From: Chloroflexota bacterium
GTDB lineage: Bacteria > Chloroflexota > Limnocylindria > Limnocylindrales > CSP1-4
Direction of reading: 5' to 3'
Length of the DNA: 64,000 nucleotides
Assembly: GCA_027364875.1 (NCBI GenBank)
Contig: DAHXON010000009.1
Coordinates: 913 to 64,912, forward strand
A model generated the notes under the pieces. That model was not told the origin of the DNA and did no database searches. It saw nothing but the letters and a program-made list of their open reading frames with translations. Both the position numbers and the translations under genes were made by a program. Positions within the stretch are counted from its first letter, which is position 1, and each line of letters begins with the position of its first letter. This document shows, in pieces, positions 10,535 through 25,867 of this stretch.

Positions 10535-11250
10535 GCAAGAATCCGAGGGGAAGCGGAGGAGCGGGGCCGTCCGGCCGCTCGCTGGCGCCGCTCGCCCCGG
10601 GCGAGCTCACGACCCCGATCGTCGTGCCGAACAGCGTCTGGAGGCCCGCCAACCCGCTCGCCTATCAGGGCGCGGGCAGTGCCCAGCTCGAGAACACTCA
10701 CCTTCGCGAGTACGGCGAAACCGACGCCGGCCGCGTGGACGACGCTCGATGGGGCAAGCTGCAGGTCATCCCAACCAACGCGGACTACGTCCTGGAGCTC
10801 ATCCGGTCGAACAGCCTCTGGCCGTTGCTGTCGGGCCTGGCCTGCTGTGCCTTCGAGATGATGTCGGCGGCGACGAGCAAGAACGACATGGACCGCTGGG
10901 GCATGTTCCCCTTCCGGGCCTCGCCGCGCCAGTCGGACGTGCTGATCGTGGCCGGCACCCTGACCACCAAGATGGCGGGCCCGCTGATCCGGCTCTGGGA
11001 GCAGATGCCCGAGCCCAAGTGGTGCGTGGCCATGGGCGACTGCACGGTCTCGGGCGGCAGATACAAGCGCAGCTACGCCGTGGTCCAGGGCATCGACCGT
11101 GTCATGCCGGTGGACGTGTACGTGCCGGGCTGCCCGCCCCGCCCGGAAGGCCTCATCTACGGAATGCTGCAGCTCGGCCAGCTGGTCAAGGATCGCCGCG
11201 GCCACTGGCACGACCGAAGCATCGGCCCCACGGTCCCGGACAAGATCTGA
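10525..11250 (+). CDS. nuoB: NADH-quinone oxidoreductase subunit B (N2 cluster)
   Basis: GTG at 10525 overlaps the nuoA stop (alternative GTG at 10531); [23 protein letters not shown] and VPGCPPRPE ligand motifs; long N-terminal extension. Confidence 0.88.
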
Positions 11251-11252
11251 CG

Positions 11253-11825
11253 ATGGATCGAACGCTCAAAGCCCGCCTCGAGATCCGCCTCGGCACGTTC
11301 CTGCACGGCGCCGTCCGGCAGCGCGGCGACGAGACGGAGATCCGAGTCGCGCCCGGGGACGTCCCGCAGGTCCTCACGATCCTGCACGATTCGATCGACC
11401 TGCGCTTCGAGATCCTCGCGGACCTGACCGGCGTGGACACCGGCAACGAGATGCAGGTCGTATATCACCTCTGGAGCCCGTCCTCTCCGGACTGGCTGCG
11501 TGTCGTCGCCGAGGGAATCTCCCGCGAGGACCCGCGCGCGCCGTCCGCCACGTTTCTGTGGACGGGGGCGGAGTGGCTCGAGCGCGAGGCGTACGACATG
11601 TTCGGCATCGTGTTCGAGGGGAACCGCGACCTGCGCCGCATCCTGATGCCGGCCGACTACATGAGCTTCCCCCTCCGGAAGGACTTCCTGCTCGCGGACG
11701 ACGCCTCTCGCTCGCCCGGGGCGGGAGTTCGCCACTCCGAGCGGGCGTCGCGGCCGGCAACCCTGGCCCACGACGCGCCGGGCTCGCCCGGCGATCCTGC
11801 CATCCGCCGAGCGCCCGCGAGCTGA
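11253..11825 (+). CDS. nuoC: NADH-quinone oxidoreductase subunit C
   Basis: 190 aa, ATG 2 nt after the nuoB stop; LADLTGVD, WLEREAYDMFGIVFEGNRDLRRIL. Confidence 0.9.
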   Translation: MDRTLKARLEIRLGTFLHGAVRQRGDETEIRVAPGDVPQVLTILHDSIDLRFEILADLTGVDTGNEMQVVYHLWSPSSPDWLRVVAEGISREDPRAPSATFLWTGAEWLEREAYDMFGIVFEGNRDLRRILMPADYMSFPLRKDFLLADDASRSPGAGVRHSERASRPATLAHDAPGSPGDPAIRRAPAS

Positions 11826-11833
11826 GGACTCCG

Positions 11834-13144
11834 ATGCCCGACCGCCCGACCGCCCACTCCGACAACGCCGATCCGCGCCGTTTCCGGTCCTCACCCGGCT
11901 CCGCGGCCGAGGCCGAGAACGCGAACCCGCGCTATTTCGAGTCGGCGGACGATCCGCGGATCATGCTCGAACAGGACATCGGCTCGGACCTGTACGAGCC
12001 CATTCCGCCGTTCCCCACTCGAACCGAGCGCGAAGGCGAGTTCTACTCGCTAGCCGACGGCCAGATGTTCCTCAACGTGGGCCCGCAGCATCCCGCTACG
12101 CACGGCGTCCTGCGCCTGGTCCTCAAGCTGTCCGGCGAGCAGATCGTGGACGTGGATCCGGTCATCGGCTATCTCCACCGCGGCGTCGAGAAGATCTGCG
12201 AGAACTGCGACTACTACCACGTCATCGACCAGGTGGATCCGCTCGAATATCTGAGCTCGCTGTTCCAGGAATGGCCGGCGGTCATGGCCTTCGAGAAGAT
12301 CATGGACGTCGAGGTGCCACGCCGGGCCGAATACATCCGCGTCCTCACGGGCGAGCTGCTGCGCATCTCCAGCCACACCCTGTACATGGGTTTCATGGCC
12401 CTGGACCTGGGTGGCCTGACGCCGATCCTGTACAGCTTCATCGAGCGCGACGAGATCAGCGAGATGCTCGCCTCGATCACGGGCGCTCGGATGCTCTTCA
12501 ACTACTTCCGGATCGGCGGCGTCAACGGCGATCTCAACCACGAGTTCATGAGCCGCCTGGGCGACTGGATGAGCCGCGCGGGCAAGCAGGCCGAGGCGAT
12601 CACTGGGCTCCTCAACGAGAACGAGATCTTCGTCCGGCGGATGCGGCCGATCGGCAGGTTGGACCGGGCAACGGCCCTCCGATACGGGGTCACGGGGGCC
12701 AACATCCGCGCCTCGGGCGTCCCGTTCGACGTTCGGCGGGCTCACCCGTACTCGATCTATCCGGAGCTGGACTTCAACATCCCGACCCGTGAGGAAGGCG
12801 ACTCGCTGGCCCGCTACCTGATGCGGGTCGACGAGATCAAGGAATCGATCCGGATCATCGACCAGTGCCTGCACCAGATGCCGGACGGGCCGATCATGGC
12901 CAGGCTGCCGCGGCTCCTGCGGCCGCGACCGGGGCGCGCCTGGGCGGCCGTCGAGGCGCCCCGCGGGATGCTCGGCGTCTACGCCATCAGCGACGGGTCG
13001 GACCAGCCGTTCCGGTTCCGGATCCACGACCCGAGCTTCATGAACCTCGAAGTGGTGCCGGCCCTGCTGCCGGGCAACCTCCTCGCCGACACGATGGCCG
13101 TGGTCTCCTCCCTCGATCCGGTGATGGGCGGTGTCGACCGATGA
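11834..13144 (+). CDS. nuoD: NADH-quinone oxidoreductase subunit D
   Basis: 436 aa; FLNVGPQHPATHGVLRLVLKLSGE, GYLHRGVEK, C-terminal SLDPVMGGVDR; N-terminal ~60-aa extension. Confidence 0.93.
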   Translation: MPDRPTAHSDNADPRRFRSSPGSAAEAENANPRYFESADDPRIMLEQDIGSDLYEPIPPFPTRTEREGEFYSLADGQMFLNVGPQHPATHGVLRLVLKLSGEQIVDVDPVIGYLHRGVEKICENCDYYHVIDQVDPLEYLSSLFQEWPAVMAFEKIMDVEVPRRAEYIRVLTGELLRISSHTLYMGFMALDLGGLTPILYSFIERDEISEMLASITGARMLFNYFRIGGVNGDLNHEFMSRLGDWMSRAGKQAEAITGLLNENEIFVRRMRPIGRLDRATALRYGVTGANIRASGVPFDVRRAHPYSIYPELDFNIPTREEGDSLARYLMRVDEIKESIRIIDQCLHQMPDGPIMARLPRLLRPRPGRAWAAVEAPRGMLGVYAISDGSDQPFRFRIHDPSFMNLEVVPALLPGNLLADTMAVVSSLDPVMGGVDR

Positions 13145-14670
13145 CCGACCAGCCGACGGGCGAGCAGCCCCAGCGCGAGCAGCCGCAGAACGTGGCGGCC
13201 GAGCCCCGGAGCGAGCAGCCGAACGTGGCGGCCGAGCCCCAGGGCGAGCAGCCGCAGAGCGAGCCGACCGCGGTTCGGTCGATGCGCGACCGGCTCGAGG
13301 CCGGGCGGGCGCGGGTCGTGCGGGCCTGGCACGACTACGCCTGGGATCACTTCAGCCCGCTCGAGCGAGCGGTCTTCCTGCTCGGTCCCGTCGCCGTCCT
13401 CCTGGCCGCCATCGTCACCCTGGCCATCATCGGCCTGGGGCCGCCTTTCCTCGACTTCATCGGCGCGAACCTGCCCATCGTCCGCTTCGTGGTTGCGGTG
13501 ACGGCAATCCTCCTCATGACCGTGCCGACGGCCTTCGTGATCATCTACCTGGAGCTCAAGGTCATCGCCCGGATGAATCTCCGAGTGGGGCCCAACCGCC
13601 TGGGGCCCATCGGCATGGCCACGAGCGTCATGCACGGCCTCAAGGTTCTGTCCAAGGAGGACTTCCCTCCGACCGGCGCGGACGTGGGCGTCTTCACCCT
13701 GGCGCCGCTCGTGACCTTCCTCGCGGCGATCATGACGCTGCTGGTCATCCCCTTCGCCCCGGCGCTCGTCGGCCAGGACCTCAACGTCGGCCTGCTGTAC
13801 TTCTTCGCCGTCGGCGGCCTGAGCGTGGTGGGTCTGCTGATGGCCGGCTGGTCGAGCTTCAACAAGTACTCGCTGCTCGGCGGGCTTCGATCGGCCGCCC
13901 AGATCGTGAGCTACGAGATCCCGCTCACTCTTTCCGTGGTGGGCGTGATCATCCTCGCCGGGACGATGAGCCTGAACCACATCGTGCTCTCGCAGTCGGG
14001 CTCCATGCTCGACTGGTTCATCTTCAAGCAGCCCCTGGCCGCGTTGATCTTCTTCATCGCCGCCACGGCCGAGGCCAACCGGACCCCGTTCGACATGACC
14101 GAGGCGGACTCCGAGATCGTGGCCGGCTTCGCCACCGAGTATTCGGGCATGCGGTTCGGCTTCTTCTTCTTCGCCGAGTACGTGAACGTCTTCATCATCT
14201 CGGCCCTCACAGTCACGCTCTTCGCCGGCGGCTGGACCGCCCCGTTCAACTGGCCCCGGCCGATCAATCTCAACTGGTTCGATCCGTTCGCCATCAGCCC
14301 GATCGCCTGGTTCGCCATCATCCTGACAGTAGTCTGGTTCGGGACCCTCTTCTTCGCTCTGGTCGTCCGCCTCTTCGGCGGCCGCGACTGGGGCATCCTC
14401 GATGCCATCCCACTCGGCTTCCTCATGCTCGGGGGAGCGCTCACCGGCCTGATCGGGCTGGCCTGCTTCATCTCGATCGACTGGATCCGCGACCTGACCT
14501 GGTTCATGGGCAAGACGTACTTCTTCGTCTTCGTCTTCGTCTGGATGCGGGCGACGCTGCCGCGCGTCCGCGTCGATCAGCTCATGGGCTTCGCCTGGAA
14601 GTGGCTCCTGCCCGCCTCTCTGCTCAACCTCTTCGTGACGGCCACCGCCGTCGTCCTGCTGAATCGGTGA
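13141..14670 (+). CDS. nuoH: NADH-quinone oxidoreductase subunit H (extended)
   Basis: 509 aa; ATGA overlap with nuoD; RVGPNRLGPIG, EIVAGFATEYSGMRFGFFFFAEY, VWMRATLPRVRVDQLM; acidic repeat-bearing N-extension and extra TM helices. Confidence 0.92.
   Translation: MTDQPTGEQPQREQPQNVAAEPRSEQPNVAAEPQGEQPQSEPTAVRSMRDRLEAGRARVVRAWHDYAWDHFSPLERAVFLLGPVAVLLAAIVTLAIIGLGPPFLDFIGANLPIVRFVVAVTAILLMTVPTAFVIIYLELKVIARMNLRVGPNRLGPIGMATSVMHGLKVLSKEDFPPTGADVGVFTLAPLVTFLAAIMTLLVIPFAPALVGQDLNVGLLYFFAVGGLSVVGLLMAGWSSFNKYSLLGGLRSAAQIVSYEIPLTLSVVGVIILAGTMSLNHIVLSQSGSMLDWFIFKQPLAALIFFIAATAEANRTPFDMTEADSEIVAGFATEYSGMRFGFFFFAEYVNVFIISALTVTLFAGGWTAPFNWPRPINLNWFDPFAISPIAWFAIILTVVWFGTLFFALVVRLFGGRDWGILDAIPLGFLMLGGALTGLIGLACFISIDWIRDLTWFMGKTYFFVFVFVWMRATLPRVRVDQLMGFAWKWLLPASLLNLFVTATAVVLLNR
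13162..13266 (+). repeat. imperfect in-frame tandem repeat (GAGCAGCC..AACGTGGCGGCCGAGCCCC units) in the nuoH 5' extension
   Basis: GAGCAGCC recurs at 13162, 13177, 13212 and 13245; encodes EQPQ/NVAAEP repeats. Confidence 0.7.
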
Positions 14671-14677
14671 TGGCACG

Positions 14678-15619
14678 ATGAGCTTCGTACCCGGACTTGG
14701 TATCGCGAAGGGCATGGCCCTGACGCTGCGCCGCTTCTTCGAGCCGAAGGCGACGATTCAGTACCCGGAGACCCAGCCCGACGTGGCGGTCCGTTTCCGC
14801 GGCCGCCTCCAGCTGCTCTACGACGAGGGGGGCAACCTAAAGTGCGAGACCTGCTTCCAGTGCGCCCAGGCCTGCCCGGTCGAATGCATCGACATGGGCG
14901 GCTTCGACACCATGGGCCGCTTCCACGTCCACTGGGGGGAAGCCGAGCAATACGGCGAGCGGCGCGAGGAATCCGCCCTGCGGCGGTCCGGCCGCCCGGT
15001 CCCCGACCCGGCCTACACGCACTTCGCCCCGCTGGACGTCGCGGCGGTCGATCGCATCGCGGCCGACCACGACTTCGACCCCAAGCGGACGCTGCCGGTG
15101 CTCGAGGCAATCGAAGCGGAGTACGGCTTTCTGCCGGTGGCGGCGCTCAAGCGCTACAGCCAGATCTCCGGCGCGCCCTACGCCCTGCTCTACGGACCCG
15201 CGAGCTACTACCGCCACCTGCACCTCCAGGATTCCGGACGCGTAGTTGGCGTGTGTGGCTGCCCCTCCTGCGCTCTGGCAGGGAGCGGCCGGATCGCCCG
15301 GGCGCTGGCCGCGGAGCTTGGCACGGAGGTCGGCCGCAAGCCCGAGAGCGGCAAGCTCGCCCTGGAGTATCTGCCGGTCCACATCCCCGGAGCGGCCTCT
15401 CCGCTGATAACCCTCGACGGCGAGCCGCAGGCGGTCACGCGCGAGAACGCGGCGGCATGGGTGCGAGCGGTGGCGAGCGGCGCCACTCCCGCCACTTCCG
15501 CCACTCCCGGTAGGCCCGCCACTTCCGCCGGGCCCGCCGGCGCGCGGCGCCGTGCCAACGTGTCCGGACCGAGCGGCGCCGGCCAGAAGGGCGCCGCCCC
15601 TCGGAGGCCGCAGGCATGA
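14678..15619 (+). CDS. chimeric subunit: NuoI N-terminal half (single 4Fe-4S motif) fused to a NuoE-like thioredoxin-fold domain
   Basis: 313 aa; TLRRFFEPKATIQYPE..RFRGRLQL..CETCFQCAQACP (only one CxxCxxCxxxCP motif), then LPVLEAIEAEYGFLP..ASYYRHLHL..VVGVCGCPSCALAGSG..LITLDGEP aligning with NuoE/Nqo2; Ala/Pro/Ser-rich tail. Confidence 0.8.
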   Translation: MSFVPGLGIAKGMALTLRRFFEPKATIQYPETQPDVAVRFRGRLQLLYDEGGNLKCETCFQCAQACPVECIDMGGFDTMGRFHVHWGEAEQYGERREESALRRSGRPVPDPAYTHFAPLDVAAVDRIAADHDFDPKRTLPVLEAIEAEYGFLPVAALKRYSQISGAPYALLYGPASYYRHLHLQDSGRVVGVCGCPSCALAGSGRIARALAAELGTEVGRKPESGKLALEYLPVHIPGAASPLITLDGEPQAVTRENAAAWVRAVASGATPATSATPGRPATSAGPAGARRRANVSGPSGAGQKGAAPRRPQA

Positions 15620-16959
15620 CGAACGCGGTCATCCTCGAGACCCCGGCGCGCTTCCCGCGGGTGCTCCTGCCGGCGAACCTGCCGAGCAACCCGACGGACC
15701 TCGAAGCGGCCCAGGCGAGCGGCTGGTTCTCGGCGCTCCGAACGGCCATCACCGAGCTCAAGCCCGAAGGCGTCATTGCCGCGCTCTCGGCCTCGGGAAT
15801 GCGTGGCCGAGGGTTCCCCGGCGTCCCTCTCGGCGACAAATGGGAGTCGTGCGCCCGCGCCGAGGCCGACCGCAAGTACGTGGTCGTCAACGCGTTCCAG
15901 TCCGATCCGGCCGTCCTGACGGACCGCATCCTGCTCGAGCGCAACCCCTACGCCGTGTTCGAGGGCGCGGCAATCGCCGCCTTCACGGTGGGAGCTCAGG
16001 AAATCATCTTCGCGGTGCGGGCCGAGGCCACGGACGCCATCCGGACACTCGAGGCCGCGTTCGCGATTGCCCGCCAGGCCGGCTACCTCGGCGACAACGT
16101 GATGGGCACCGGGCTGGAGCTCCAGGCGTCGGTCCGGCCGCTCGAAGGCTCGTACATGCTCGGCGAGGAGACGGTCCTGCTCAAGGGCCTCGAAGGCCGG
16201 CGAGGACAGCCCGATCAGCAGCCGCCCTACACCACGACGCAGGGCCTGTTCGGCAAGCCCACCCTCATCCATGGCCCGCAGACCTTCGCCGCGGTCCCGA
16301 CCATCGTCAACGGCGGCATCGCGGAGTACCTCGAGACGTCTCCGAAGGCCTTCGCCGGCACGGTCCTCGTCCAGATCTCCGGCGCGGTCGTGCAGCCCGG
16401 CATAGCCGAGGTTCCGCTCGGCGTGACGCTCCGCGAGGTCCTGGACACGGCCGGCGGCGTACCCGCGTCGCGCCGGCTCAAGGCGGTCCTCGTCGGCGGG
16501 CCATCAGGCGGCCTGATCCCCGCGATCGGCCTGGACGTCACCTTCGACCAGGGCTCGCTCCAGAAGGCCGGGGCGCAGATCGGCTCCGGGTCCATCGTAG
16601 TGGTGGACCAGACCGCATGCGTGGTGGACCTGGCCGCGACTCTTACGCGCTTCTCCGCCGACCAGGCCTGCGGCAAGACGATCCCGTGCCGGATCGGGCT
16701 GCGCCGCATGGCCGAGATCGGGCAGCGCTTCTGCGATGGACTCCCGCGCGGCGACGACGTCGCGCTCCTCAACGACCTGGCCGTCGACATCGTCGAGAGC
16801 GCGCTCTGCGATCACGAGCGGCGCGCCACTCTGGCCCTCACGAGCCTCGCCCGGTATTTCCGCGACGAGCTCGACGCCCACATCGTTCGCAACACATGCC
16901 CGGCGGGCGTCTGCCATCCGATTGCCAAGGCAGGCGCGCGTACGGGCGCGGCTTCTTGA
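15616..16959 (+). CDS. NuoF-like subunit with divergent FMN/NADH and N3-cluster motifs
   Basis: 447 aa; ATGA overlap with the upstream gene; SGMRGRGFPGVPLGDKW, VVNAFQSDPA, GSYMLGEETVLLKGLEGRRGQP, ACGKTIPCRIG, each clearly homologous to but different from the canonical NuoF motif. Confidence 0.85.
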   Translation: MTNAVILETPARFPRVLLPANLPSNPTDLEAAQASGWFSALRTAITELKPEGVIAALSASGMRGRGFPGVPLGDKWESCARAEADRKYVVVNAFQSDPAVLTDRILLERNPYAVFEGAAIAAFTVGAQEIIFAVRAEATDAIRTLEAAFAIARQAGYLGDNVMGTGLELQASVRPLEGSYMLGEETVLLKGLEGRRGQPDQQPPYTTTQGLFGKPTLIHGPQTFAAVPTIVNGGIAEYLETSPKAFAGTVLVQISGAVVQPGIAEVPLGVTLREVLDTAGGVPASRRLKAVLVGGPSGGLIPAIGLDVTFDQGSLQKAGAQIGSGSIVVVDQTACVVDLAATLTRFSADQACGKTIPCRIGLRRMAEIGQRFCDGLPRGDDVALLNDLAVDIVESALCDHERRATLALTSLARYFRDELDAHIVRNTCPAGVCHPIAKAGARTGAAS

Positions 16960-16967: not shown

Positions 16968-19895
16968 ATGCCAGACTTCAACCCCCGCCTGAGCCCCGCC
17001 TCCCCGCCCAGCGGTCAGCCGCCTCGCAAACGGTCCACGAGTCGCGGCAAAGCGGCCGAGGACGGCGGAAAGCCGCCGGTGCCGACCGATGCGCTGCCGG
17101 CCGCCGGCACGGCGCCTGCCGCCGGTGCCACGGCCGCCCCGGCCGTCGCCGAAGCTCGCGCCGCGGGGATCCAGGCGCCCGTCTCGATCAACCCGCTGGC
17201 GCCCGCGTCCGCTTCGTTCGAACGGTCCCGCAGCGGAGCCGACCACCCCGAGCTGAACCTCCGCTACCTCCGGCCGGCGCCCGACCAGAAGGAGACGTGG
17301 AACCGCCAGGCCGCCCTGGTGGACAGTCGCCCCGACGACAAGGCTCCGGTGGACACGGTCTTCCCGCTCGACGAGTCGCACGCGGAGAAGCTGATCACGA
17401 CCCAGGCGCCCCAGCGGCCGATCGCCACGCCCGCCTTCCAGGTCCAGATCGATGGCCGCGTGCTGCCCGCTTTCGAGGGCCAGACGATCCTGGAGGTCTG
17501 CAGGGCCAACGGCATCGAAGTCCCGACGCTCTGCTACGAGCCCAAGCTACCCGGGTTCGGGGCCTGCCGGATGTGCGTCGTCGAGGTGGAGGGCGAGGAG
17601 CATCCGCCCATCTCGTGCTCCCGCACCGCCGAGCCGGGCATGGTGGTCCAGACCCAGACCGAGAAGGTCCGCCGCCTCCGCCGCACGAACCTGGAGCTGA
17701 TCTTCTCGGATCACAACGCCTACTGCCTGCCGCCCTGCCAGAACAAGTGCCCGAGCCACATCGACATCCCGGGCTTCCTCAAGGCCAACGCCGAGGGCAA
17801 CTTCCGCGAGTCGGCGCGCATCTTCAAGCGGACCATTCCGTTCCCTTCGATCCTGGGCCGCGTCTGCCCGGCGCCGTGCGAGGAGCACTGCCGCCGCGAC
17901 GAGGTGGACGAAGCGATCGCCATCCGAGACAGCCACCGCTACCACGGCGACGTCGTCCTGCGCGAGCAGAAGGAAGGAATCGCCCCGCCGCTGCCGTTCG
18001 AAATGGAGCCCAAGAGCGGCAAGCGGGTGGCGGTGGTCGGGTCGGGGCCGGCCGGCATGTCGGCGGCCTACTACCTGCTCATGTCCGGCCACGACGTGAC
18101 GGTCATCGAAAAGGATCCGGAGCCGGGCGGAATGCTCCGCTACGGCATCCCCGAGTACCGCCTGCCCAAGGCCGACGTTCTCGACCCCGAATACGAGGCC
18201 GTCTGGCGCCTGGGCGGCCGGCTCGAGTGCAACAAGATGCTGGGCCGAGATTTCTGCCTCGAGGATCTCGAGAAGGAAGGCTACGACGCCACGGTTGTCG
18301 CTCTCGGCTGCTACACGACGAACAAGCTCGGCGTCGAGAACGAAACCGCCGACGGCGTCATCGACGGGCTCGAATACCTGCGGACGGCCACGCTCGGCCT
18401 GCCGTATCCGGGCCACAAGGGCAGCCGGGTGGTGGTCGTTGGCGGCGGTTTCACCGCGATGGACTGCAGCCGCACGTCGGTTCGCCAGGGCGCAAAGGAA
18501 ATCACGCTCGTCTACCGGCGCGACATGAAGGACATGCCCGCCGAGAGCGAGGCCCACGAGGCCCTCGAAGAGGGCGTCAAGATGATCTTCGAGGCCGGGC
18601 CGACGCGCGTCGTGGTCGACGGCAACAACAAGGTCACGGGCATCGAGTTCATCCGCATGCAGCCGGGCGAACCGGACGCGTCGGGCCGGCGACGCCCCGA
18701 ACCGGTGAAGGGCAGCGAGTTCGTCATCGAGTGCGACCGTGTCCTCCTCGCCATCGGCCAGACGCCGGACCTCTCCTGGATCGGCTCCGGGGACGAGGGC
18801 GTGGAGGGCAATCGCGGCCGGCTCAAGGCCGACGCCGTGACCTTCGAGACGGGCCGTCCGGGCGTCTTCGGCACCGGCGACATCCGGATCGGGTCCGCCA
18901 CCGTCGTCCAGGCGGTCGCCGAAGGCCGCCGCTGCGCCTATGCGGTGGACGCGTACCTGAAGGGCAACGACCTCTCGGAGCTGCGCGAGCGCCAGACCCT
19001 CGCCGAGGTCCAGCCGACGTTCCTCTCGATCGTGCCGTTCACGGACGAGCCCAAGGAAGCGCGCCACCGGCTCCGGGCCCTCCCGGCGAAGGAGCGGCGC
19101 AAGAACTACGACGAGTACGAGATCCCGTACACCGCCGCGGAGGTCATGGCCGAATCCACCCGCTGCCTGCAGTGCACCTGCGAGGCGGTGGGCTTCTGCG
19201 ACCTGCGCCGTCTGGGCATCGAGTACGGCACCACCCTGGCCAACCTGGAACCGGCCCACGACCAGGGCGCCGGGTTCCGGAGCGTCACGGAGAACCGCTT
19301 CACCGGCACGAACCACGACTACATCCGCGACGACAGCCACGCCTTCATCCTGCGCGAGCCGTCCCGCTGCATCGACTGCGGGCGCTGCGCCAACGTCTGC
19401 GCGGAGGTCGTCGGGGCCGCCTGCTACGACTTCATGCGAACCGGCTTCGACACCCTGGTCACGACGCCGCTGGACATGAGCCTCAACGACACTCCGTGCG
19501 TCTCCTGCGGTCGATGCGCCGAGACCTGCCCCACGGGCGCGCTGATGCCCAAGCCGCGGGTTCTCGAGAAGTACGACGTGGACGAGAGCCGCTGCATCCT
19601 GTGCGGCATCTGCGTGGACGCCTGCCCGTACGACGCGCTCCGAGACGGCCAGGACAGCGAGCTGTCGCATACGTCTCGCGCCAACCCGGAGATCGACCTG
19701 ATCGCCATCGCCGATGTGGAGCGGGAAACCGAGGTCACCTACATTCAGCGAGAGCGAGACTGGATCGCCCGAGCCACGGCCGAAGGCCGGCTCCAGGTGC
19801 CCAATTACGACCTGCCCGAGCTTCCGGCGTCGCTGGTCTCGGCGGGCTCGAACGGCAACCGGGGCGGCGGCGGCCGGGGCGGCAAGAAGCCATGA
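16968..19895 (+). CDS. NuoG-N-terminal-like Fe-S protein with embedded GltD-type FAD/NAD(P)H oxidoreductase module and a C-terminal NuoI-C-half-like 4Fe-4S motif; no molybdopterin-type domain
   Basis: 975 aa, ATG 8 nt after the nuoF-like stop. 2Fe-2S domain (FQVQIDGR..CRANGIEVPTLCYEPKLPGFGACRMCVVEV..ISC). GltD signature (CLPPCQNKCP..GRVCPAPCEEHC, VAVVGSGPAGMSAAYYL, GGMLRYGIPEYRLPK, VVVVGGGFTAMDCSRT, GVFGTGD). Then CLQCTCEAVGFCDL, CIDCGRCANVC..CVSCGRCAETCP, then RCILCGICVDACPYDAL. Confidence 0.85.
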   Translation: MPDFNPRLSPASPPSGQPPRKRSTSRGKAAEDGGKPPVPTDALPAAGTAPAAGATAAPAVAEARAAGIQAPVSINPLAPASASFERSRSGADHPELNLRYLRPAPDQKETWNRQAALVDSRPDDKAPVDTVFPLDESHAEKLITTQAPQRPIATPAFQVQIDGRVLPAFEGQTILEVCRANGIEVPTLCYEPKLPGFGACRMCVVEVEGEEHPPISCSRTAEPGMVVQTQTEKVRRLRRTNLELIFSDHNAYCLPPCQNKCPSHIDIPGFLKANAEGNFRESARIFKRTIPFPSILGRVCPAPCEEHCRRDEVDEAIAIRDSHRYHGDVVLREQKEGIAPPLPFEMEPKSGKRVAVVGSGPAGMSAAYYLLMSGHDVTVIEKDPEPGGMLRYGIPEYRLPKADVLDPEYEAVWRLGGRLECNKMLGRDFCLEDLEKEGYDATVVALGCYTTNKLGVENETADGVIDGLEYLRTATLGLPYPGHKGSRVVVVGGGFTAMDCSRTSVRQGAKEITLVYRRDMKDMPAESEAHEALEEGVKMIFEAGPTRVVVDGNNKVTGIEFIRMQPGEPDASGRRRPEPVKGSEFVIECDRVLLAIGQTPDLSWIGSGDEGVEGNRGRLKADAVTFETGRPGVFGTGDIRIGSATVVQAVAEGRRCAYAVDAYLKGNDLSELRERQTLAEVQPTFLSIVPFTDEPKEARHRLRALPAKERRKNYDEYEIPYTAAEVMAESTRCLQCTCEAVGFCDLRRLGIEYGTTLANLEPAHDQGAGFRSVTENRFTGTNHDYIRDDSHAFILREPSRCIDCGRCANVCAEVVGAACYDFMRTGFDTLVTTPLDMSLNDTPCVSCGRCAETCPTGALMPKPRVLEKYDVDESRCILCGICVDACPYDALRDGQDSELSHTSRANPEIDLIAIADVERETEVTYIQRERDWIARATAEGRLQVPNYDLPELPASLVSAGSNGNRGGGGRGGKKP

Positions 19896-19947: not shown

Positions 19948-20496
19948 ATGCCGGTAGGCGACTCGATCCCGTTCACGTCGATCCGCTGGGAGGATCTGCT
20001 GTTCCTGGGCCTCTCGGCGATGCTGCTCGGATCGGCCATACTGGTGGTAACGCTTCGCGACATCATCCGCTGCGGCATCGCGCTGATGGCGTCCTTCGCC
20101 GCTCTCGCGGGCATCTACCTCCTGCTCGGCAACCCCATCGTCGCGGCGACGCAGGTGCTCGTCTACATCGGCGCGATCAGCGTCCTGATCCTGTTCGCGG
20201 TCATGCTGACCCAGACCAAGAACGCTCCCGGGCGGCTGGTCTTCCAGACTCAGGCCTGGGCCGCGGCCGTGGCGGCGGTCGTGGTCGCGGTGATTATCAT
20301 CGCGGCGATTCTCGCCACGACCTGGCCGGCCACGATCGAGCCGGTCGCGACCGCGACGTCGAAGGTCGGCCAGCTGCTCTTCCACGACTACGTCCTGCCG
20401 TTCGAAGTGGTCAGCGTGATGCTGACGATGGCCGTGGTGGGCGCCGTGTATCTGGCCCGCCGCGAGCCCGACACCCGGGAGGAGGACCAGCTGTGA
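19948..20496 (+). CDS. nuoJ: NADH-quinone oxidoreductase subunit J
   Basis: 182 aa from the ATG at 19948 preceded by GGAGGAGGGA; VLVYIGAISVLILFAVML, LPFEVVSVMLTMAVVGAV. Confidence 0.88.
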   Translation: MPVGDSIPFTSIRWEDLLFLGLSAMLLGSAILVVTLRDIIRCGIALMASFAALAGIYLLLGNPIVAATQVLVYIGAISVLILFAVMLTQTKNAPGRLVFQTQAWAAAVAAVVVAVIIIAAILATTWPATIEPVATATSKVGQLLFHDYVLPFEVVSVMLTMAVVGAVYLARREPDTREEDQL

Positions 20497-20804
20497 GCCA
20501 CTCCCTCGACGCCTATCTGATCCTCTCGGCGCTGCTCTTTGCCATAGGAACGTTCGGGTTCCTGGCGCGGCGGAACGCGATCAGCATGCTCATGTCCATC
20601 GAGCTGATGATCAACGCGGTCAATCTGACGATCGTCGCCTTCGGCGCGTTCGTGGCCAGGCTGCAGCTCCACGCCGCGGTCATCGCCCTGCTGGTCATCG
20701 CGGTCGCGGCCGCGGAAGCCACGGTGGGCCTCGGCATCATCATGGCGATCTTCCGGAATCGGAAGACTCCACTCGTGGACGAGTACGACTCCATGAGGCA
20801 GTAG
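20493..20804 (+). CDS. nuoK: NADH-quinone oxidoreductase subunit K
   Basis: 103 aa; GTGA overlap with nuoJ; LMSIELMINAVNL, AAAEATVGLGIIMAIFRN. Confidence 0.93.
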   Translation: MSHSLDAYLILSALLFAIGTFGFLARRNAISMLMSIELMINAVNLTIVAFGAFVARLQLHAAVIALLVIAVAAAEATVGLGIIMAIFRNRKTPLVDEYDSMRQ

Positions 20805-20808: not shown

Positions 20809-22764
20809 ATGACACTGCTCATTCCGCTGATTCCACTGCTGCCGCTGATCGGCTTTGTTCTCACCGGGCTGTTCGGGCGGGCCTTCCCGAATGAGATCCA
20901 CCGGGTAGCCGTCGGCTCGGTCGTGATCTCGTGGCTCATCGCCATGGTTGTGGTCGTGGGCGCGCTGGCGCACATCGGCATCGATGCGAGCGGAGCGGGG
21001 GTCAAGCTCTGGACCTGGATCCCGGCGCTGGGCTTCACCGCGGACTTCGGCCTCTTCGTGGATCCGCTGACCGCCTGCCTCCTGATCGTGGTCACGACGA
21101 TCGGCATGCTCGTCCACTTCTACTCGATCGGCTACATGGCCCACGACCGGGGCCGCTGGCGGTTCTTCGCGTACCTCAACCTCTTCATGTTCTCGATGCT
21201 GCTGCTCGTGCTGGCGAACGACTTCCTGCTCGTCTTCGCCGGCTGGGAGCTGGTCGGCCTGTGCAGCTACCTGCTGATCGGCTTCTGGTACAAGCGGCCG
21301 GTCGCGGCAACCGCGGCCAAGAAAGCCTTCCTGGTCAACCGGGTCGGCGACATGGGCTTCGCGCTCGGGATCATGGCCATCTGGACGCAGCTCGGCACCC
21401 TCAACATGCAGGAGGTCTTCGCCCGCTTCAGCTCCGTCCCGGGCGAGTGGCAGGTCGCGATCGCGCTCCTGATCTTCTGCGGCGCCGTCGGCAAGAGCGC
21501 CCAGTTCCCGCTCCACGTCTGGCTGCCGGACGCGATGGAGGGCCCCACCCCGGTCTCCGCCCTGATCCATGCCGCCACCATGGTCAACGCCGGCGTCTAT
21601 CTGATCGCCCGCTGCAACCCGATCTTCGGGGCGGTGCCGGGCGTGATGGTCGTCGTGGCCGCGATCGGCATCTTCACCGCAATCCTGGCCGCCTCGATCG
21701 CCTTCACCCAGACCGACATCAAGCGCGTCCTGGCCTACTCCACGCTCAGCCAGCTCGGCTACATGTTCGCCTCGCTCGGCGTGGGGGCCTGGACGGCGGC
21801 GATCTTCCACCTGATGAGCCACGGCTTCTTCAAGGGCCTGCTGTTCCTGGACTCGGGCTCCGTGATCCACGGCATGAGCGACGAGCAAGACATGCGCAAG
21901 ATGGGCGGCCTGGCGAAGAAGATGCCGACGACGTACTGGACGATGCTCGTCGGCGCGGTCGCGATCTCCGGGGTACCGCCGCTGGCGGGCTTCTTCTCCA
22001 AGGACGAAGTCCTGGCCGGAGCCTTCAAGGACGGCTTCCTGTGGGTCTGGGCGGTCGGCTTCCTGGTCGCGGGGATGACCGCGTTCTACATGTTCCGGCT
22101 CATGGGCATGACCTTCTGGGGCCCGAGCCATGTCGATCCCGAGGTGGAGCACCACATCCACGAGTCGCCGCCGTCGATGACGCGGCCGCTGATCCTGCTC
22201 GCCATCCCGTCGATCTTCCTGGGCATGCTGATCGGCTTCCCGCCGGACAGCGGCCTCATCCACCAGTGGCTCGCGCCGGTCTTCGAGGCCACGATCGCCG
22301 CCCACGGCCCGAGCGAGGCCGCCTACTCGCTGTTCGGCATCGACGGGGCCCTGATGATCGCGACAACGGCGCTCGTCGCCGTCGCAATCGTCGTGGCCTG
22401 GCGCCTCTTCGGCGTCTCGATCCCATCGCTCAACCTCCACGCCGAGCCGCGCCCGGATCGCGTCCGCGAGCTCGCCGAGCGGCCCGGTCTGGCGGAGCTC
22501 TACACGGGCTCCTCGCACAAGTGGTGGTTCGACGACATCAACGACTTCCTGTTCGTCCGCTGGGGCAGCCGCCTGGCGGCCGCGGTCTGGTGGTTCGATC
22601 GGGTGGTCGTGGACGGCACGGTGAACGGCGTGGGGGCCGTGACCGTTGAGGCGGGAACGCTCCTGCGGCGGGTCCAGACGGGGCGCGTCCAGAACTACGC
22701 CCTCGGCATCGCGATCGGTCTCATCGCGATGGCGGCGGGCTATCTATTCATCTCGGTTCGGTAG
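20809..22764 (+). CDS. nuoL: NADH-quinone oxidoreductase subunit L
   Basis: 651 aa; WELVGLCSYLLIGFW, GKSAQFPLHVWLPDAMEGPTPVSALIHAATMV, C-terminal lateral-helix region. Confidence 0.95.
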   Translation: MTLLIPLIPLLPLIGFVLTGLFGRAFPNEIHRVAVGSVVISWLIAMVVVVGALAHIGIDASGAGVKLWTWIPALGFTADFGLFVDPLTACLLIVVTTIGMLVHFYSIGYMAHDRGRWRFFAYLNLFMFSMLLLVLANDFLLVFAGWELVGLCSYLLIGFWYKRPVAATAAKKAFLVNRVGDMGFALGIMAIWTQLGTLNMQEVFARFSSVPGEWQVAIALLIFCGAVGKSAQFPLHVWLPDAMEGPTPVSALIHAATMVNAGVYLIARCNPIFGAVPGVMVVVAAIGIFTAILAASIAFTQTDIKRVLAYSTLSQLGYMFASLGVGAWTAAIFHLMSHGFFKGLLFLDSGSVIHGMSDEQDMRKMGGLAKKMPTTYWTMLVGAVAISGVPPLAGFFSKDEVLAGAFKDGFLWVWAVGFLVAGMTAFYMFRLMGMTFWGPSHVDPEVEHHIHESPPSMTRPLILLAIPSIFLGMLIGFPPDSGLIHQWLAPVFEATIAAHGPSEAAYSLFGIDGALMIATTALVAVAIVVAWRLFGVSIPSLNLHAEPRPDRVRELAERPGLAELYTGSSHKWWFDDINDFLFVRWGSRLAAAVWWFDRVVVDGTVNGVGAVTVEAGTLLRRVQTGRVQNYALGIAIGLIAMAAGYLFISVR

Positions 22765-22776: not shown

Positions 22777-24360
22777 ATGAACGACTTCCCGCTGCTGAGC
22801 CTGATCACCTTCACGCCACTGGTCGGGGCCGTCGTAATCGGCCTGCTGCCGGATCGCCGCGACGACCTGGTTCGACGGACGGCCCTGGGCTTCGCGCTTC
22901 TCGCCTGGGTCTTCTCGATCCTGCTGGTTCTCGTGTTCGCGTTCGGAACAGCGCCGGACCCGGCCAGCGCGTCAGGGGCCACCAGAGAACACGTCGGTGC
23001 CGTCACGGGCAGCGCCTTGACTTCGTTCCGTTTCGTCGAGGCCGCCGACTGGATCCCGAACTTCGGCATCCAGTACAAAGTCGGCGCCGACGGGCTGAGC
23101 GTCTTGATGGTCCTCCTGACCACCACCCTCTCGTGGATCAGCATCCTGGCGTCGGGGCCGATCACGCAGCGCCTCAAGGCCTACATGATCAGCTTCCTCG
23201 TCCTGGAGGTCGGCATGATCGGCGTCTTCGTGGCGATGGACCTCTTCCTGTTCTACATCTACTGGGAGATCGTCCTCGTCCCGATGTACCTGATCATCGG
23301 CATCTGGGGCGGCGCGAACCGCATCTACGCCACGATGAAGTTCGTGCTGTATACGCTCGTCGGCTCGCTGCTGATGCTGGTGGCGATACTGGCGACGGCG
23401 TTCAGCTACCAGAGCAGCCACGGCGGCTCGTGGACCGGGGCGTTCGACTACCAGACGCTGGCGGTCTTCGCCCCGAGCTTCTCCCACGAGCTCCAGATCG
23501 GCGCGTTCCTGGCGCTCTTCCTCGCATTCGCGATCAAGGTGCCCATGTGGCCGTTCCACACCTGGCTGCCCGACGCGCACACCGAAGCGCCGACCGCCGG
23601 TTCGGTCATCCTCGCCGGGGTCATGCTGAAGCTCGGCGCGTACGGGCTCATCCGGTTCGCGGTGCCGCTCTTCCCGTGGGCGGCCCACACGTTCGCCTGG
23701 CCGATCATCGTCATGTCGATCATCGCGATCGTCTACGGCGCGATCGTCTCGATCGTCCAGCCCGATCTCAAGCGCCTGGTCGCGTACAGCTCCGTGAGCC
23801 ACATGGGCTTCGTGACGCTGGGCATCTTCGTGTTCAGCCAGGCCGCGCTCCAGGGCGCGATCCTGCAGATGGTCAACCACGGCCTGATCACAGGCGGGCT
23901 CTTCCTGCTCGTGGGCGTGATCTACGAGCGAACCCACGACCGAACGATCGCCAAGATGGGCGGCCTCGCGGCGACCATGCCGATCTGGTCGACGGTCTTC
24001 GGCTTCTTCATCCTCGCCTCGGCCGGCCTTCCCGGCCTGTCCGGATTCATCGGCGAGTTCCTCGTATTCGTCGGCTCGTTCACCGTCGCGCCGGTCATCT
24101 CGGTCGCCTCGATCATCGTCATGGTTCTCGTGGCCACGTACCTGCTCTGGATGTTCCAGCGGCTGGCGTTCGGGGATCTCTCGGAGTTCCTGCGCGGCCT
24201 CGGCGGCCACCTGACGGACATGAGCGGCACCGAAGCGCTGACGCTGCTGCCGCTGGGGATCGGGATCGTGGTCCTCGGCCTGTTCCCGAGTCTGGCGCTG
24301 GATTTCCTGCGCATCCCGACCCAGGTATTCCTTGCGGCCGTGGGAGCCCCGGGCGCATGA
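22777..24360 (+). CDS. nuoM: NADH-quinone oxidoreductase subunit M
   Basis: 527 aa; AGGAGGA upstream of the ATG; FAIKVPMWPFHTWLPDAHTEAPTAGSVILAGVMLKLG. Confidence 0.95.
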   Translation: MNDFPLLSLITFTPLVGAVVIGLLPDRRDDLVRRTALGFALLAWVFSILLVLVFAFGTAPDPASASGATREHVGAVTGSALTSFRFVEAADWIPNFGIQYKVGADGLSVLMVLLTTTLSWISILASGPITQRLKAYMISFLVLEVGMIGVFVAMDLFLFYIYWEIVLVPMYLIIGIWGGANRIYATMKFVLYTLVGSLLMLVAILATAFSYQSSHGGSWTGAFDYQTLAVFAPSFSHELQIGAFLALFLAFAIKVPMWPFHTWLPDAHTEAPTAGSVILAGVMLKLGAYGLIRFAVPLFPWAAHTFAWPIIVMSIIAIVYGAIVSIVQPDLKRLVAYSSVSHMGFVTLGIFVFSQAALQGAILQMVNHGLITGGLFLLVGVIYERTHDRTIAKMGGLAATMPIWSTVFGFFILASAGLPGLSGFIGEFLVFVGSFTVAPVISVASIIVMVLVATYLLWMFQRLAFGDLSEFLRGLGGHLTDMSGTEALTLLPLGIGIVVLGLFPSLALDFLRIPTQVFLAAVGAPGA

Positions 24361-24406: not shown

Positions 24407-25867
24407 ATGAGCTGGTCGGATCTGGGGACGATCGCGCCGATCATCGTCGCCGTTCTGGTCGCGGCGGCCATCTTGATCGTCGATATGGCCGCACCCGGCC
24501 GCCGCGACGCGGTTCTGGTCACCGCGCTCGGTGGCCTGGGAGTCGTGGCGGTGGTGATCCTGCTCCAGGCCGGCCGCACCGAAACCGCGTTCGGCGGCGC
24601 CTACTCGCTCGACAACCTGACCGTCTTCCTCGATTTCCTGTTCGTCTCGATCGCCGTGCTGACGATCCTATTCGCGGTGGACTACCTGGAGCCGCGCCAC
24701 CTACCCCTCGCCGAGTTCGCGGCCGTCCTGGTCTTCGCCGTGACCGGGGCGATGCTCATCGCCGCCTCGACGGACCTGCTGCTCCTCTTCCTGGCCCTGG
24801 AGCTGATGGTCCTGCCCGGCTACATGCTCGTCGGTTACGCCCGCCGCGACGCGTACGCGACCGAGGGCGCGATCAAGTACTTCCTGCTCGGCTCGTTCTC
24901 GAGCGCGATCCTGCTGTTCGGCCTCGCCTACGTCTGGGGCCTGACGGGATCCACGCGGGTGGCGGACGTTGCCGCGGCTCTGGCGGCAGACGCGGCGCGC
25001 GGCACGTTCCCCGCCGGACTGGCCATGGGTCTGGCCTTCATGTCGGTCGGAGTGGCCTTCAAGATGGCCGCCGTGCCGTTCCACTACTGGACGCCGGACG
25101 CCTACCAGGGCTCGCCCACCCCGGTGACGGCGTATCTGTCGGTCGGCCCGAAGGTGGGCGCGTTCGCCATCGCCCTGCGGCTATTCGTCGGCGCGCTTGG
25201 CCCCGTCAAAGCCGATTGGCTGCCGGTCGTGATCGTCCTCGCGGCCGTGACGATGACCCTGGGCAACCTGATCGCGATCACCCAGGACAACGTCAAGCGG
25301 ATGCTCGCCTACTCCTCGATCGCCCACACCGGGTACATCCTGGTGGGCCTTGCCGCCTATGCCGGCGGCCAGTCGAGCGGCCTGAGCGCGCTGCTGTTCT
25401 ACGGCGCCGCCTACACGTTCATGAACATGGGAGCCTTCGCGGTAATCGCGGCCTTGCAGCGGCGCCCGGGCGTCTCGAGTCAGATCTCGACCTTCGCCGG
25501 CCTGGGCCGCCGCGACCCGTGGCTCGGCGTGCTGATGGCCGTCTTCCTGCTGTCCCTCACGGGGATTCCGCCACTGGCCGGATTCTGGGCAAAGGCCTAC
25601 GTGATCCTGGCCGCGGTCCAGGGAGGCGGCTGGCTCACGGCCCTGGCGGTCCTGGCGATGGTCAACGCCGCGGCGGCCGCGTTCTACTACCTGCGCGTGG
25701 TCGTCTACATGTACATGCGCGACCCGGCCGAGGAAGGACGGGCGGCCGCTCCGGGGATGCTCTTCCGCGCCGGCCTGGCGGTCAGCTGCGTGGTGACCCT
25801 GATCTTCGGCCTATTCCCGGCGGTCCTGACGGCGGCGGTCAACGCGGCAAACGTCTTCCACGGCTAA
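24407..25867 (+). CDS. nuoN: NADH-quinone oxidoreductase subunit N
   Basis: 486 aa from the ATG at 24407 (ORF opens at 24332, which overlaps nuoM); FKMAAVPFHYWTPDAYQGSPTPVTAYLSVGPK. Confidence 0.9.
   Translation: MSWSDLGTIAPIIVAVLVAAAILIVDMAAPGRRDAVLVTALGGLGVVAVVILLQAGRTETAFGGAYSLDNLTVFLDFLFVSIAVLTILFAVDYLEPRHLPLAEFAAVLVFAVTGAMLIAASTDLLLLFLALELMVLPGYMLVGYARRDAYATEGAIKYFLLGSFSSAILLFGLAYVWGLTGSTRVADVAAALAADAARGTFPAGLAMGLAFMSVGVAFKMAAVPFHYWTPDAYQGSPTPVTAYLSVGPKVGAFAIALRLFVGALGPVKADWLPVVIVLAAVTMTLGNLIAITQDNVKRMLAYSSIAHTGYILVGLAAYAGGQSSGLSALLFYGAAYTFMNMGAFAVIAALQRRPGVSSQISTFAGLGRRDPWLGVLMAVFLLSLTGIPPLAGFWAKAYVILAAVQGGGWLTALAVLAMVNAAAAAFYYLRVVVYMYMRDPAEEGRAAAPGMLFRAGLAVSCVVTLIFGLFPAVLTAAVNAANVFHG

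Follow-up and report, generated by a model that had tools for sequence, protein, structure and literature searches.

Respiratory complex I is taught as an NADH enzyme, the exceptions being relatives that use F420H2, ferredoxin or flavodoxin, and its 11-subunit form is encoded in the operon order A-B-C-D-H-I-J-K-L-M-N. Here we describe a complex I operon from a Limnocylindria genome of the Chloroflexota (GCA_027364875.1, contig DAHXON010000009.1, positions 913 to 64,912; this whole stretch of 64,000 nucleotides is called the window), in which NuoI is split: one half is joined to the first product of a three-gene cassette, the other half to the last. This last product, encoded at window positions 16968 to 19895 and called the G-like protein below, begins like NuoG and carries a GltD-type module with binding motifs for flavin adenine dinucleotide (FAD) and NAD(P)H.

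The closest described relatives of the cassette are the soluble Nfn-type enzymes of the Bfu family, NfnABC of Caldicellulosiruptor saccharolyticus and Thermococcus sibiricus and StnABC of Sporomusa ovata (9bov, 9n5u and 8oh5), whose genes stand in the same C-B-A order. Their A-type subunit, as described for StnC, joins a 2Fe-2S domain to an inserted GltD domain, and the rest of the chain resembles NuoG/FdhF (PMC10482914). For Csac NfnABC the cofactor chain is given as FAD-A7-A6-A3-A2-A1-[B1-FMN-C1] (FMN, flavin mononucleotide), with A2-A4-A5 as a non-functional dead-end branch, and the Bfu A7 cluster is held by three cysteines and one lysine (Lys170), which is reported to be conserved in all Bfu members so far (PMC11829005). 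Bfu-type modules have also been predicted on complex I itself: in the Nuo-Bfu enzymes of Geobacter, Deferribacteres, Planctomycetes and Nitrospirae (BfuB clades 38 and 39) Bfu-type ABC subunits, with genes placed midway in the nuo cluster, take over from the NuoEFG head (Schut et al. 2022, PMC9304861). FpoF, which uses F420H2, the cyanobacterial ferredoxin-dependent NDH-1 and the 11-subunit enzymes reported in Actinobacteria and Chloroflexi (PMC3144371) combine an 11-subunit core with a lineage-specific input device. Finally, mbx-like operons of Thermotoga and proteobacteria carry a GltD-type NAD(P) flavoprotein at the NuoI position (Degli Esposti 2015, PMC4758237).

The operon in the window comprises 13 genes in the order nuoA-B-C-D-H-[E-like]-[F-like]-[G-like]-J-K-L-M-N (Table 1), and neither nuoG nor a single-gene nuoI was found in it. 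The core subunits NuoA, B, C, D, H, J, K, L, M and N are ordinary by Pfam and belong to one operon; NuoB carries the ligand motifs of cluster N2 (CC...C...CP, including PGCPPRP), and nuoH lies directly 3' of nuoD, as in 11-subunit-type operons. The canonical 14-subunit complex I (NuoA-N / Nqo1-14) is thereby matched in its core subunits and N2 ligands, and also in the eight cysteines of NuoI. Unlike in the canonical enzyme, however, nuoH precedes the E-, F- and G-like genes, a NuoG with a molybdenum (Mo) domain and a single NuoI are missing, the NuoE-like protein lacks N1a, the NuoF-like protein has altered FMN/NADH motifs and three N3 cysteines, and a FAD/NADPH module with two clusters has been added.

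Both halves of NuoI were recognised from their fusions. Residues 9-73 of the E-like protein, whose N-terminus reads MSFVPGLGIAKGMALTLRRFFEPKATIQYPE...RFRGRLQLL...CETCFQCAQACPVECI, match residues 6-68 of Nqo9/TYKY, that is the N-terminal half of NuoI (E ~1e-9), and the tail of the G-like protein matches the C-terminal half of NuoI/TYKY with its second motif (E ~2e-10). When the two pieces were joined in silico they gave one colinear stretch against whole NuoI with an E value improved to 1e-18, aligning to residues 23-134 of 7ar7_I and residues 6-123 of Nqo9 and carrying all eight cysteines. As no other NuoI-like open reading frame (ORF) was found in the 64-kb window, the half matches and the joined alignment establish that NuoI is split. 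Its function is probably kept, though the single-polypeptide architecture of the family with two CxxCxxCxxxCP motifs (N6a/N6b) is not, and an operon devoid of NuoI function was rejected as an explanation because both halves are present. In the AlphaFold2 (AF2) model of the G-like protein the NuoI C-terminal half alone is unstructured, with a predicted local distance difference test (pLDDT) below 50, as expected for half a ferredoxin fold.

The G-like ORF runs on the forward strand from the ATG at 16968 to the stop at 19895 and encodes 975 residues. Pfam recognised Fer2_4 (residues 157-231), Fer4_20 (253-332), Pyr_redox_2 (353-653) and Fer4_Nqo3 (794-859), with Fer4 motifs reaching residue 892; the NuoG N5 model NADH-G_4Fe-4S_3 was matched at its positions 1-17 of 40 only (residues 238-254), corresponding to the H-x3-C half of the motif. 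The motifs SDHNAYC (nt 17706-17726), CLPPCQNKCP (nt 17724-17753) and GRVCPAPCEEHC (nt 17856-17891) are followed by VAVVGSGPAG (nt 18027-18056), GGMLRYGIPEYRLPK (nt 18126-18170), VVVVGGGFTAMD (nt 18429-18464), VYRRDMKDMPA (nt 18510-18542) and GVFGTGD (nt 18861-18881), and then by CLQCTCEAVGFC (nt 19164-19199), so that the FAD/NAD(P)H motifs GxGxxG, GGMLRYGIP, GGGFTAMD, VYRRDMKDMPA and GVFGTGD are all present. Two full CxxCxxCxxxC motifs (residues 801-811 and 844-855), as in clusters A3/A4 of HydA/NfnA, precede a third ferredoxin motif, KYDVDESRCILCGICVDACPYDAL (residues 868-891), which is the one that matches the second half of NuoI/TYKY, and the protein extends about 80 residues beyond it. H249, C253, C733/736/738/744 and both CxxCxxCxxxC motifs are invariant in 68 sequences, soluble NfnA types included.

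Compared with Protein Data Bank (PDB) sequences, the G-like protein is colinear over residues ~158-886 with Caldicellulosiruptor NfnA 9bov_A (E 5e-167), T. sibiricus NfnA 9n5u_A and Sporomusa StnC 8oh5_C at ~36-40% identity, and every cysteine is conserved in the alignment, as are the motifs for FAD and NADPH. The AF2 model (pLDDT 82, predicted template modelling score, pTM, 0.78) matches the folds of the same three proteins at template modelling (TM) scores of 0.70-0.72, the value being 0.72 for 9bov_A and 8oh5_C. Shared with NfnA/StnC are the N-terminal 2Fe-2S domain, the GltD/NfnL-type FAD/NADPH module placed after H-x3-C, the CxxCxCx5C motif and the A3/A4 motifs, whereas the Fdh/Mo-like domain and A5 are absent and the NuoI C-terminal half stands in their place, in a gene lying within a nuo operon. 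The 'GltD inside NuoG' topology is thus the already known architecture of Nfn-type BfuA, and the novelty lies in the operon context.

An initial annotation of this gene, made from the DNA letters, had proposed a low-complexity N-terminus of about 155 residues, a NuoG/HydA-type 2Fe-2S domain, an inserted and intact FAD/NAD(P)H module of the GltD type, the loss of the Mo-bisPGD-like domain, a link to soluble Bfu/NfnABC fusions and a complex I operon as context. All of this was borne out: the N-terminus, of about 150 residues, is coding-like by its G+C content at third codon positions (GC3, 0.88), poorly conserved and variable in length, Pfam placed the domains and the quoted motifs where they had been described, no molybdopterin family matched in a Pfam scan of the 975-residue protein, the best PDB matches are the Nfn/Stn proteins named above, and the gene lies inside a complete nuo operon. 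The N4-type segment suggested after GltD does hold Fe-S motifs, but these are the two complete A3/A4 motifs together with the NuoI-like third one, which had gone unmentioned. Missed as well were the split of NuoI, the NuoE- and NuoF-like genes directly upstream, and the derivation from a complete Nfn-type BfuCBA cassette that is still found in Thermoleophilia.

These two upstream genes, the stop of the first overlapping the start of the second (ATGA), encode degenerate BfuC- and BfuB-like proteins. Residues 119-259 of the E-like protein match NfnC/HydC/StnA (E 8e-11), with cysteines 3 and 4 of the 2Fe-2S site absent in the window (LEYLPVHIPGAASP) and the thioredoxin-like part or 2Fe-2S region deleted in most Limnocylindria. 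Its end (window 15455-15619) is a low-complexity region rich in Pro, Ala, Gly and Arg, with an unusual G+C content of 0.85 at second codon positions (GC2) and a length that varies between genomes. The F-like protein has its best PDB matches in NfnB/StnB/HydB (E 1e-99 to 1e-89; best true NuoF, E 2e-76) and aligns to residues 113-526 of NfnB only, so that unlike the soluble enzymes the window has a BfuB-like protein without the N- and C-terminal Fe-S domains and without one B1 cysteine, next to a BfuC-like protein without a cluster. We rejected a rearranged canonical nuoEFG as the source of the three genes, for all of them are closer to Nfn/Stn/Hyd Bfu subunits and the F-like protein of Thermoleophilia is a full BfuB.

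In the window the motifs of the F-like protein read GRGFPGVP, NAFQSDPAV, LEGSYMLGEET, CGKTIPC and LCDHERR; across Limnocylindria (~63-75 genomes) the second N3/B1 cysteine is always Thr or Ser (Thr in the window, leaving three cysteines at N3), NADEGDPGAF is rewritten as NGYGADPA-like sequences and GAGAFVC as VQGAYML, and the glycine loop, degenerate in the window, is kept in most members. Pfam bit scores for the window versus the Thermoleophilia locus L086 are 101 vs 165 (Complex1_51K), 63 vs 116 (NADH_4Fe-4S) and 50 vs 159 (2Fe-2S_thioredx, on the E-like protein). Five functional BfuB proteins agree at 192 positions, and the F-like protein shares 56% of these; the G-like protein, by comparison, retains 92% of 149 reference-invariant positions. 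Overall identity is ~43% between the F-like protein and Thermoleophilia BfuB, and ~46% between the G-like protein and its references. The E- and F-like subunits are therefore most likely mainly structural in Limnocylindria, judging by their motifs. The idea of the initial annotation that electrons enter at GltD rather than at the NuoF FMN site gains from this difference in conservation, but NuoE- and NuoF-like genes are present after all, the argument against the FMN site comes from motif erosion, and with the FMN glycine loop kept in most relatives an NADH input is possible.

Relatives of the G-like protein were found in at least 491 genomes when one genome per GTDB species was scanned, and the best 80 of these are Limnocylindria or Chloroflexota metagenome-assembled genomes (MAGs). 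The 13-gene synteny is the same in every sufficiently long locus among the 80 Limnocylindria genomes. Homologues form at least 120 clusters at 77-100% identity; those that have a name are called 'FAD-dependent oxidoreductase [Candidatus Limnocylindrales bacterium]', and current annotations of this protein type read only 'FAD-dependent oxidoreductase' or 'formate dehydrogenase major subunit'. Four contigs ~90% identical to the Limnocylindria operon (L014, L020, L022 and L059) occur in MAGs labelled Polarisedimenticolia, Saccharimonadales, Methylomirabilota and Sulfomarinibacteraceae and are probably binning contaminants. Among 38 complete operons, from which all mean pairwise identities were computed, the value is 0.83 for the G-like protein, with 0.977 for its A3/A4 motifs, 0.94 for the GltD Fe-S region, 0.84 for the FAD/NADPH domains, 0.89 for the NuoI C-terminal half and 0.88 for the A1 [2Fe-2S] domain. 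The NuoI N-terminal half stands at 0.83, and the F-like protein at 0.67 (its domains at 0.56-0.70), the lowest of all subunits. The Fe-S, FAD and NADPH motifs of the G-like protein are near-invariant in ~75 Limnocylindria genomes, VYRRDMKDMPA being found in 71 out of 75.

A second clade consists of ~825-residue G-like proteins from Thermoleophilia (Actinomycetota) MAGs, whose operons keep the gene order and both NuoI fusions; between the clades, subunits are 29-51% identical. In these operons (L086, GCA_040769125.1, 7311-12475; L004, 7330-12451) the E-like protein has all four 2Fe-2S cysteines, and the F-like protein is a full BfuB of 636-638 residues that carries a thioredoxin-like 2Fe-2S domain at its N-terminus and a 2x[4Fe-4S] domain at its C-terminus, with the motifs GRGGAGFP, NGDEGDPGAF, GAGAFVCGE(E/S)T and CGKCVPC intact. 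By sequence they amount to a full Nfn-type bifurcating module that would be attached to complex I. The NADPH site of the Thermoleophilia G-like proteins is likewise preserved, with GGGFTAMD in 108 of 120 clusters and (L/V)YRR in 109. One Thermoleophilia-type subclade, P0130 (L004 10001-12451) with about nine related clusters, presents the pattern opposite to the window: BfuB is intact and the GltD NAD(P)H site degenerate, with GDGFAA.E, SPCAR for YRR, and no GEPDASGRRRP loop.

When 1.84 billion cluster representatives were searched, NfnA-type proteins of 1000-1270 residues came next, at 37-47% identity, and the closest ones outside the two clades, P0126 and P0127, are encoded in ordinary operons of the soluble kind, again in C-B-A order. 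In a neighbour-joining (NJ) tree of the NfnA region that all of them share, bootstrap support is 100% for Limnocylindria and 100% for Thermoleophilia but only 26% for their union, so the common origin of the two forms is argued from the shared fusions, the gene order and a lysine-to-histidine change at A7 rather than from the tree. The residue in question is His323 (nt 17934-17936), which occupies the Lys170 column: the A7 ligand position is His in 117/117 Limnocylindria and 117/117 Thermoleophilia and Lys in 113 of 116 soluble-type proteins. Histidine at A7 is a shared derived change, and it would fit a retuning of the cluster that comes first after FAD. Of the long soluble-type proteins sampled, P0236 (1049 residues, NfnA-type; L090 5052-13150, ENA ERZ27247713) alone has His at this position; it is encoded after genes for the gamma, delta and alpha subunits of pyruvate:ferredoxin oxidoreductase, a 249-residue BfuC and a 660-residue BfuB, and may be part of a Por-Nfn-Bfu hybrid.

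On balance, we consider it probable that the locus is best explained as an Nfn/Stn-type BfuC-B-A cassette residing in the split nuoI of an 11-subunit-type operon, and that its product is a non-bifurcating NADPH:menaquinone oxidoreductase. The layout would then be A-B-C-D-H-[I(N)-E']-[F']-[NfnA'-I(C)]-J-K-L-M-N, and in the simplest history an nfnCBA-type operon would have inserted into the nuoI gene of an 11-subunit enzyme, and NfnA would have lost its Mo-like domain. The two NuoI halves would rebuild the N6a/N6b ferredoxin domain across two polypeptides. Every NfnA ligand set but A5 is retained in the G-like protein, and in the alignment to 9bov_A the NuoI C-terminal motif begins 20 residues past the A4 motif, exactly where A5 of NfnA starts; for these reasons we propose A4 as the exit. 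The predicted electron path would be NADPH -> FAD -> A7 -> A6 -> A3 -> A2 -> A4 -> N6a/N6b -> N2 (NuoB) -> menaquinone, whereby the A2-A4-A5 arm, a dead end in soluble NfnABC, would become the way out, and proton pumping by NuoH/J/K/L/M/N would be coupled to quinone reduction. The A1 -> B1-FMN-C1 arm of the Limnocylindria form appears decayed or vestigial, given that C1/N1a is lost, one N3/B1 cysteine replaced, the NADH/FMN loops rewritten and the Bfu-specific domains gone, and with C1 and the B-specific domains missing bifurcation is not expected there. Such a decayed arm without bifurcation would make NADPH likely the sole or main donor, and the assembled complex would most likely be a proton-pumping NADPH:menaquinone oxidoreductase. 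Cells keep their NADPH more reduced than their NADH, and with NADPH as donor a menaquinone-linked complex I would plausibly gain driving force. The same driving-force issue has been raised for Nuo-Bfu (Schut et al. 2022, PMC9304861).

With respect to the described systems, the window proteins would clearly work as a hybrid of soluble Nfn-Bfu/Stn enzymes and canonical complex I. Where the soluble enzymes pass electrons to NAD+ and ferredoxin, the acceptor here would be expected to be quinone. Nuo-Bfu, which the Thermoleophilia relatives resemble in their complete Bfu-type B subunit, is described as made of 14 separate subunits A-N, and its description mentions neither a GltD/NADPH module nor a split NuoI, nor Chloroflexi or Actinobacteria; moreover, the F-like protein of the window lacks the ferredoxin-type C-terminal domain IPR017896, one of the four InterPro domains by which BfuB homologues were collected in that work (PMC9304861). 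In FpoF and NDH-1 types a separate subunit or carrier docks on an intact NuoI, whereas the input in the window is an Nfn-type flavoprotein chain covalently joined to both NuoI halves. The flavoprotein of the mbx-like operons reportedly takes the place of NuoI in an Mbx-type complex that oxidises ferredoxin (PMC4758237), while the window keeps both halves of NuoI, and its module is NfnA-like, with a 2Fe-2S domain and clusters A2-A4, in a true nuo operon.

Several points weigh against a dedicated NADPH:menaquinone oxidoreductase with A4 as the exit. Electrons in the canonical enzyme leave for N6a from N5, an A2-type cluster, and not from an A4-type one; we infer the A4-to-N6 step from sequence position, and the choice of NADPH over NADH from the YRR motif common to NADPH-using StnC/NfnA. 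An AF2 model of an artificial single-chain NuoI chimera, predicted from the single sequence without alignment, reached a pLDDT of 39, too low to be informative. Most Limnocylindria F-like proteins retain the FMN glycine loop GRGGAG(F/Y)P, the Tyr and GEE, and they are under purifying selection, their derived motifs LCDHER and CGK(T/S)IPC being invariant in this class, so that a retained or altered flavin/NADH function is possible. The A1 [2Fe-2S] domain of the G-like protein, which leads to the F-like subunit, is highly conserved as well. These features, with the 67% mean identity of the F-like protein and the fully intact BfuB and BfuC of Thermoleophilia with all their motifs, are what speaks for a dual-input or still Bfu-like enzyme, in which NADH via FMN and NADPH via FAD both feed quinone or the module also equilibrates NADH and NADPH, with ferredoxin taking part in Thermoleophilia. 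We hold this to be unlikely, though it deserves serious consideration: in all Limnocylindria NADEGDPGAF has become NGYGADPA, GAGAFVC has become VQGAYML and the second N3 cysteine is lost, the glycine loop of the window lineage is degenerate too (GRGFPGVP), and with the C1 cluster and the Bfu-specific B domains absent no bifurcation would be possible under the flavobicluster model (PMC11829005).

A quite improbable reading is that the enzyme works mainly in reverse, with proton-motive force driving electrons from menaquinol to the GltD FAD and supplying NADPH for biosynthesis, perhaps while cells persist by lithotrophy or on trace gases. Modules of the GltD/NfnB type can work in both directions, a GltD-related flavoprotein is the NADP+-reducing site in mbx-like complex I relatives (PMC4758237) and complex I runs backwards in chemolithotrophs (PMC4453560), but the window shows no genes for lithotrophy linked to the operon, and the sequence carries no direction signal; if this is the sole complex I, a forward role would be simpler in an aerobic heterotroph. 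It is very improbable that the cassette encodes a soluble Nfn-like enzyme merely co-transcribed with the nuo genes and not docking to the membrane complex. All its closest homologues are indeed soluble, yet both halves of the essential NuoI occur only as fusions to cassette proteins, the Mo-like domain that mediates tetramerisation of NfnA (PMC11829005) is absent, and two phyla have the arrangement as a fixed trait. That the operon is decaying and non-functional, or an artefact of assembly, is hardly credible, the loss of canonical motifs in the E- and F-like proteins notwithstanding: all reading frames are intact, the synteny recurs across independent assemblies with relatives in at least 491 species genomes, and the functional sites of the G-like protein, NuoB and the NuoI halves are near-invariant. 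Pseudogenes were rejected on the same synteny and motif conservation across genomes. Among these readings we retain the NADPH:menaquinone oxidoreductase with the cassette in split nuoI as the preferred one.

Coordinates of the operon and of the parts of its three cassette proteins are collected in Table 1; the starts of nuoH, nuoJ, nuoM and nuoN were set as for nuoC, by alignment to gene calls. NuoH is ~450 residues long in Limnocylindria versus ~375 in Thermoleophilia, and the window NuoB has a long N-terminal extension relative to the Thermoleophilia NuoB of 184 residues.

Table 1. Genes of the operon and features of the cassette proteins, in window positions.
Feature	Position	Strand	Evidence
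nuoA	10178..10534	+	Pfam Oxidored_q4, E 5e-32
nuoB	10414..11250 (ORF limits; true start probably ~10525)	+	Pfam Oxidored_q6, E 1e-25
nuoC	11253..11825	+	Pfam Complex1_30kDa, E 3e-36; start by alignment to L001 gene call
nuoD	11830..13144 (start approximate)	+	Pfam Complex1_49kDa, E 2e-83, in ORF 11099-13144
nuoH	13282..14670 (start 13282 or 13318)	+	Pfam NADHdh, E 1e-104
E-like fusion, 313 aa: NuoI N-terminal half, conserved linker and NuoE/BfuC-like domain without 2Fe-2S ligands	14678..15619	+	
NuoI N-terminal half, one CxxCxxCxxxCP motif, CETCFQCAQACP (nt 14843-14878)	14678..14902	+	motif invariant in ~60 genomes
NuoE/BfuC-like remnant	15032..15454	+	match to NfnC/HydC/StnA
F-like, 447 aa: NuoF/BfuB-like core lacking the two terminal Fe-S domains of Bfu (N- and C-terminal)	15616..16959	+	
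G-like, gene of this study	16968..19895	+	NfnA/StnC-type Fe-S flavoprotein; NuoI C-terminal half replaces Mo-like domain
G-like: N-terminal extension, Pro/Ala-rich, low-complexity, variable length	16968..17417	+	GC3 0.88, mean pairwise identity 0.48
G-like: [2Fe-2S] domain, A1/N1b equivalent	17436..17660	+	Pfam Fer2_4, E 1e-19; invariant cysteines
G-like: H-x3-C, then GltD-type 2x[4Fe-4S] cysteines (A6/A7 equivalents)	17706..17891	+	Pfam Fer4_20; 9bov_A alignment
G-like: FAD and NAD(P)H-binding domains	18027..18881	+	Pfam Pyr_redox_2, E 6e-30; model pLDDT >90
G-like: CxxCxCx5C, completing the His-ligated N5/A2-type cluster region past the GltD insertion	19164..19199	+	invariant, 68 sequences
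G-like: two ferredoxin motifs CIDCGRCANVC ... CVSCGRCAETCP, A3/A4 2x[4Fe-4S] domain	19368..19532	+	most conserved part of the protein
G-like: NuoI C-terminal half, KYDVDESRCILCGICVDACPYDALRDGQDSELS, at the position of the NfnA A5 cluster	19569..19667	+	match to second motif of TYKY/NuoI
nuoJ	19948..20496	+	Pfam Oxidored_q3
nuoK	20493..20804	+	ORF; Oxidored_q2 annotated on orthologous genes
nuoL	20809..22764	+	Pfam Proton_antipo_N and Proton_antipo_M
nuoM	22777..24360	+	Pfam Proton_antipo_M
nuoN	24407..25867	+	Pfam Proton_antipo_M

Elsewhere in the window, dnaA lies at 58805-60409 on the reverse strand (DnaA_N, Bac_DnaA and Bac_DnaA_C), and the chromosomal replication origin probably adjoins the window. 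A stop-free ORF of 2251 codons at 41122-47877 (-) matches protein O-mannosyltransferase (PMT/PMT_4TMC) only in its C-terminal part, its long N-terminal part having no Pfam match, and possibly represents more than one gene; a gene for a TMEM260-like O-mannosyltransferase lies near it at 49348-51270 (+). Large coding-like ORFs without a Pfam match at E <= 1e-5 were found at 3984-5576 (-), 5728-6894 (+), 47328-49391 (+) and 53033-55465 (-), and one without a match at E <= 1e-3 at 8112-9641 (-).

Limnocylindria and Thermoleophilia are very abundant and mostly uncultured lineages of soil and freshwater, and in a full-text search of the literature, covering open-access text only, we found no description of the arrangement reported here. 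We tentatively suggest, with less assurance than we attach to the reading of the window locus itself, that these operons are an unrecognised class of complex I, in which a whole soluble Nfn-type bifurcating transhydrogenase operon was inserted into nuoI as an independent acquisition of an N-module; the Limnocylindria form may be the first dedicated NADPH-oxidising, proton-pumping complex I, and the Thermoleophilia form may hard-wire a bifurcation-competent NADH/NADPH/ferredoxin module to menaquinone reduction. The operon would record a second, independent capture of an input module by the 11-subunit core, with a complete form in Thermoleophilia and a reduced one in Limnocylindria available for comparison. 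A ferredoxin domain of the 2x[4Fe-4S] type that two polypeptides apparently rebuild together is an unusual architecture, and the lysine-to-histidine change at the first cluster after FAD offers a handle on redox tuning. If the proposed path is true, the dead-end branch of soluble NfnABC becomes the main route of electrons, and a proton-pumping complex I fed with NADPH through a GltD-type FAD would be a new entry point into respiratory chains. As the G-like protein carries generic annotations, metabolic models of Limnocylindria and Thermoleophilia would need revision.

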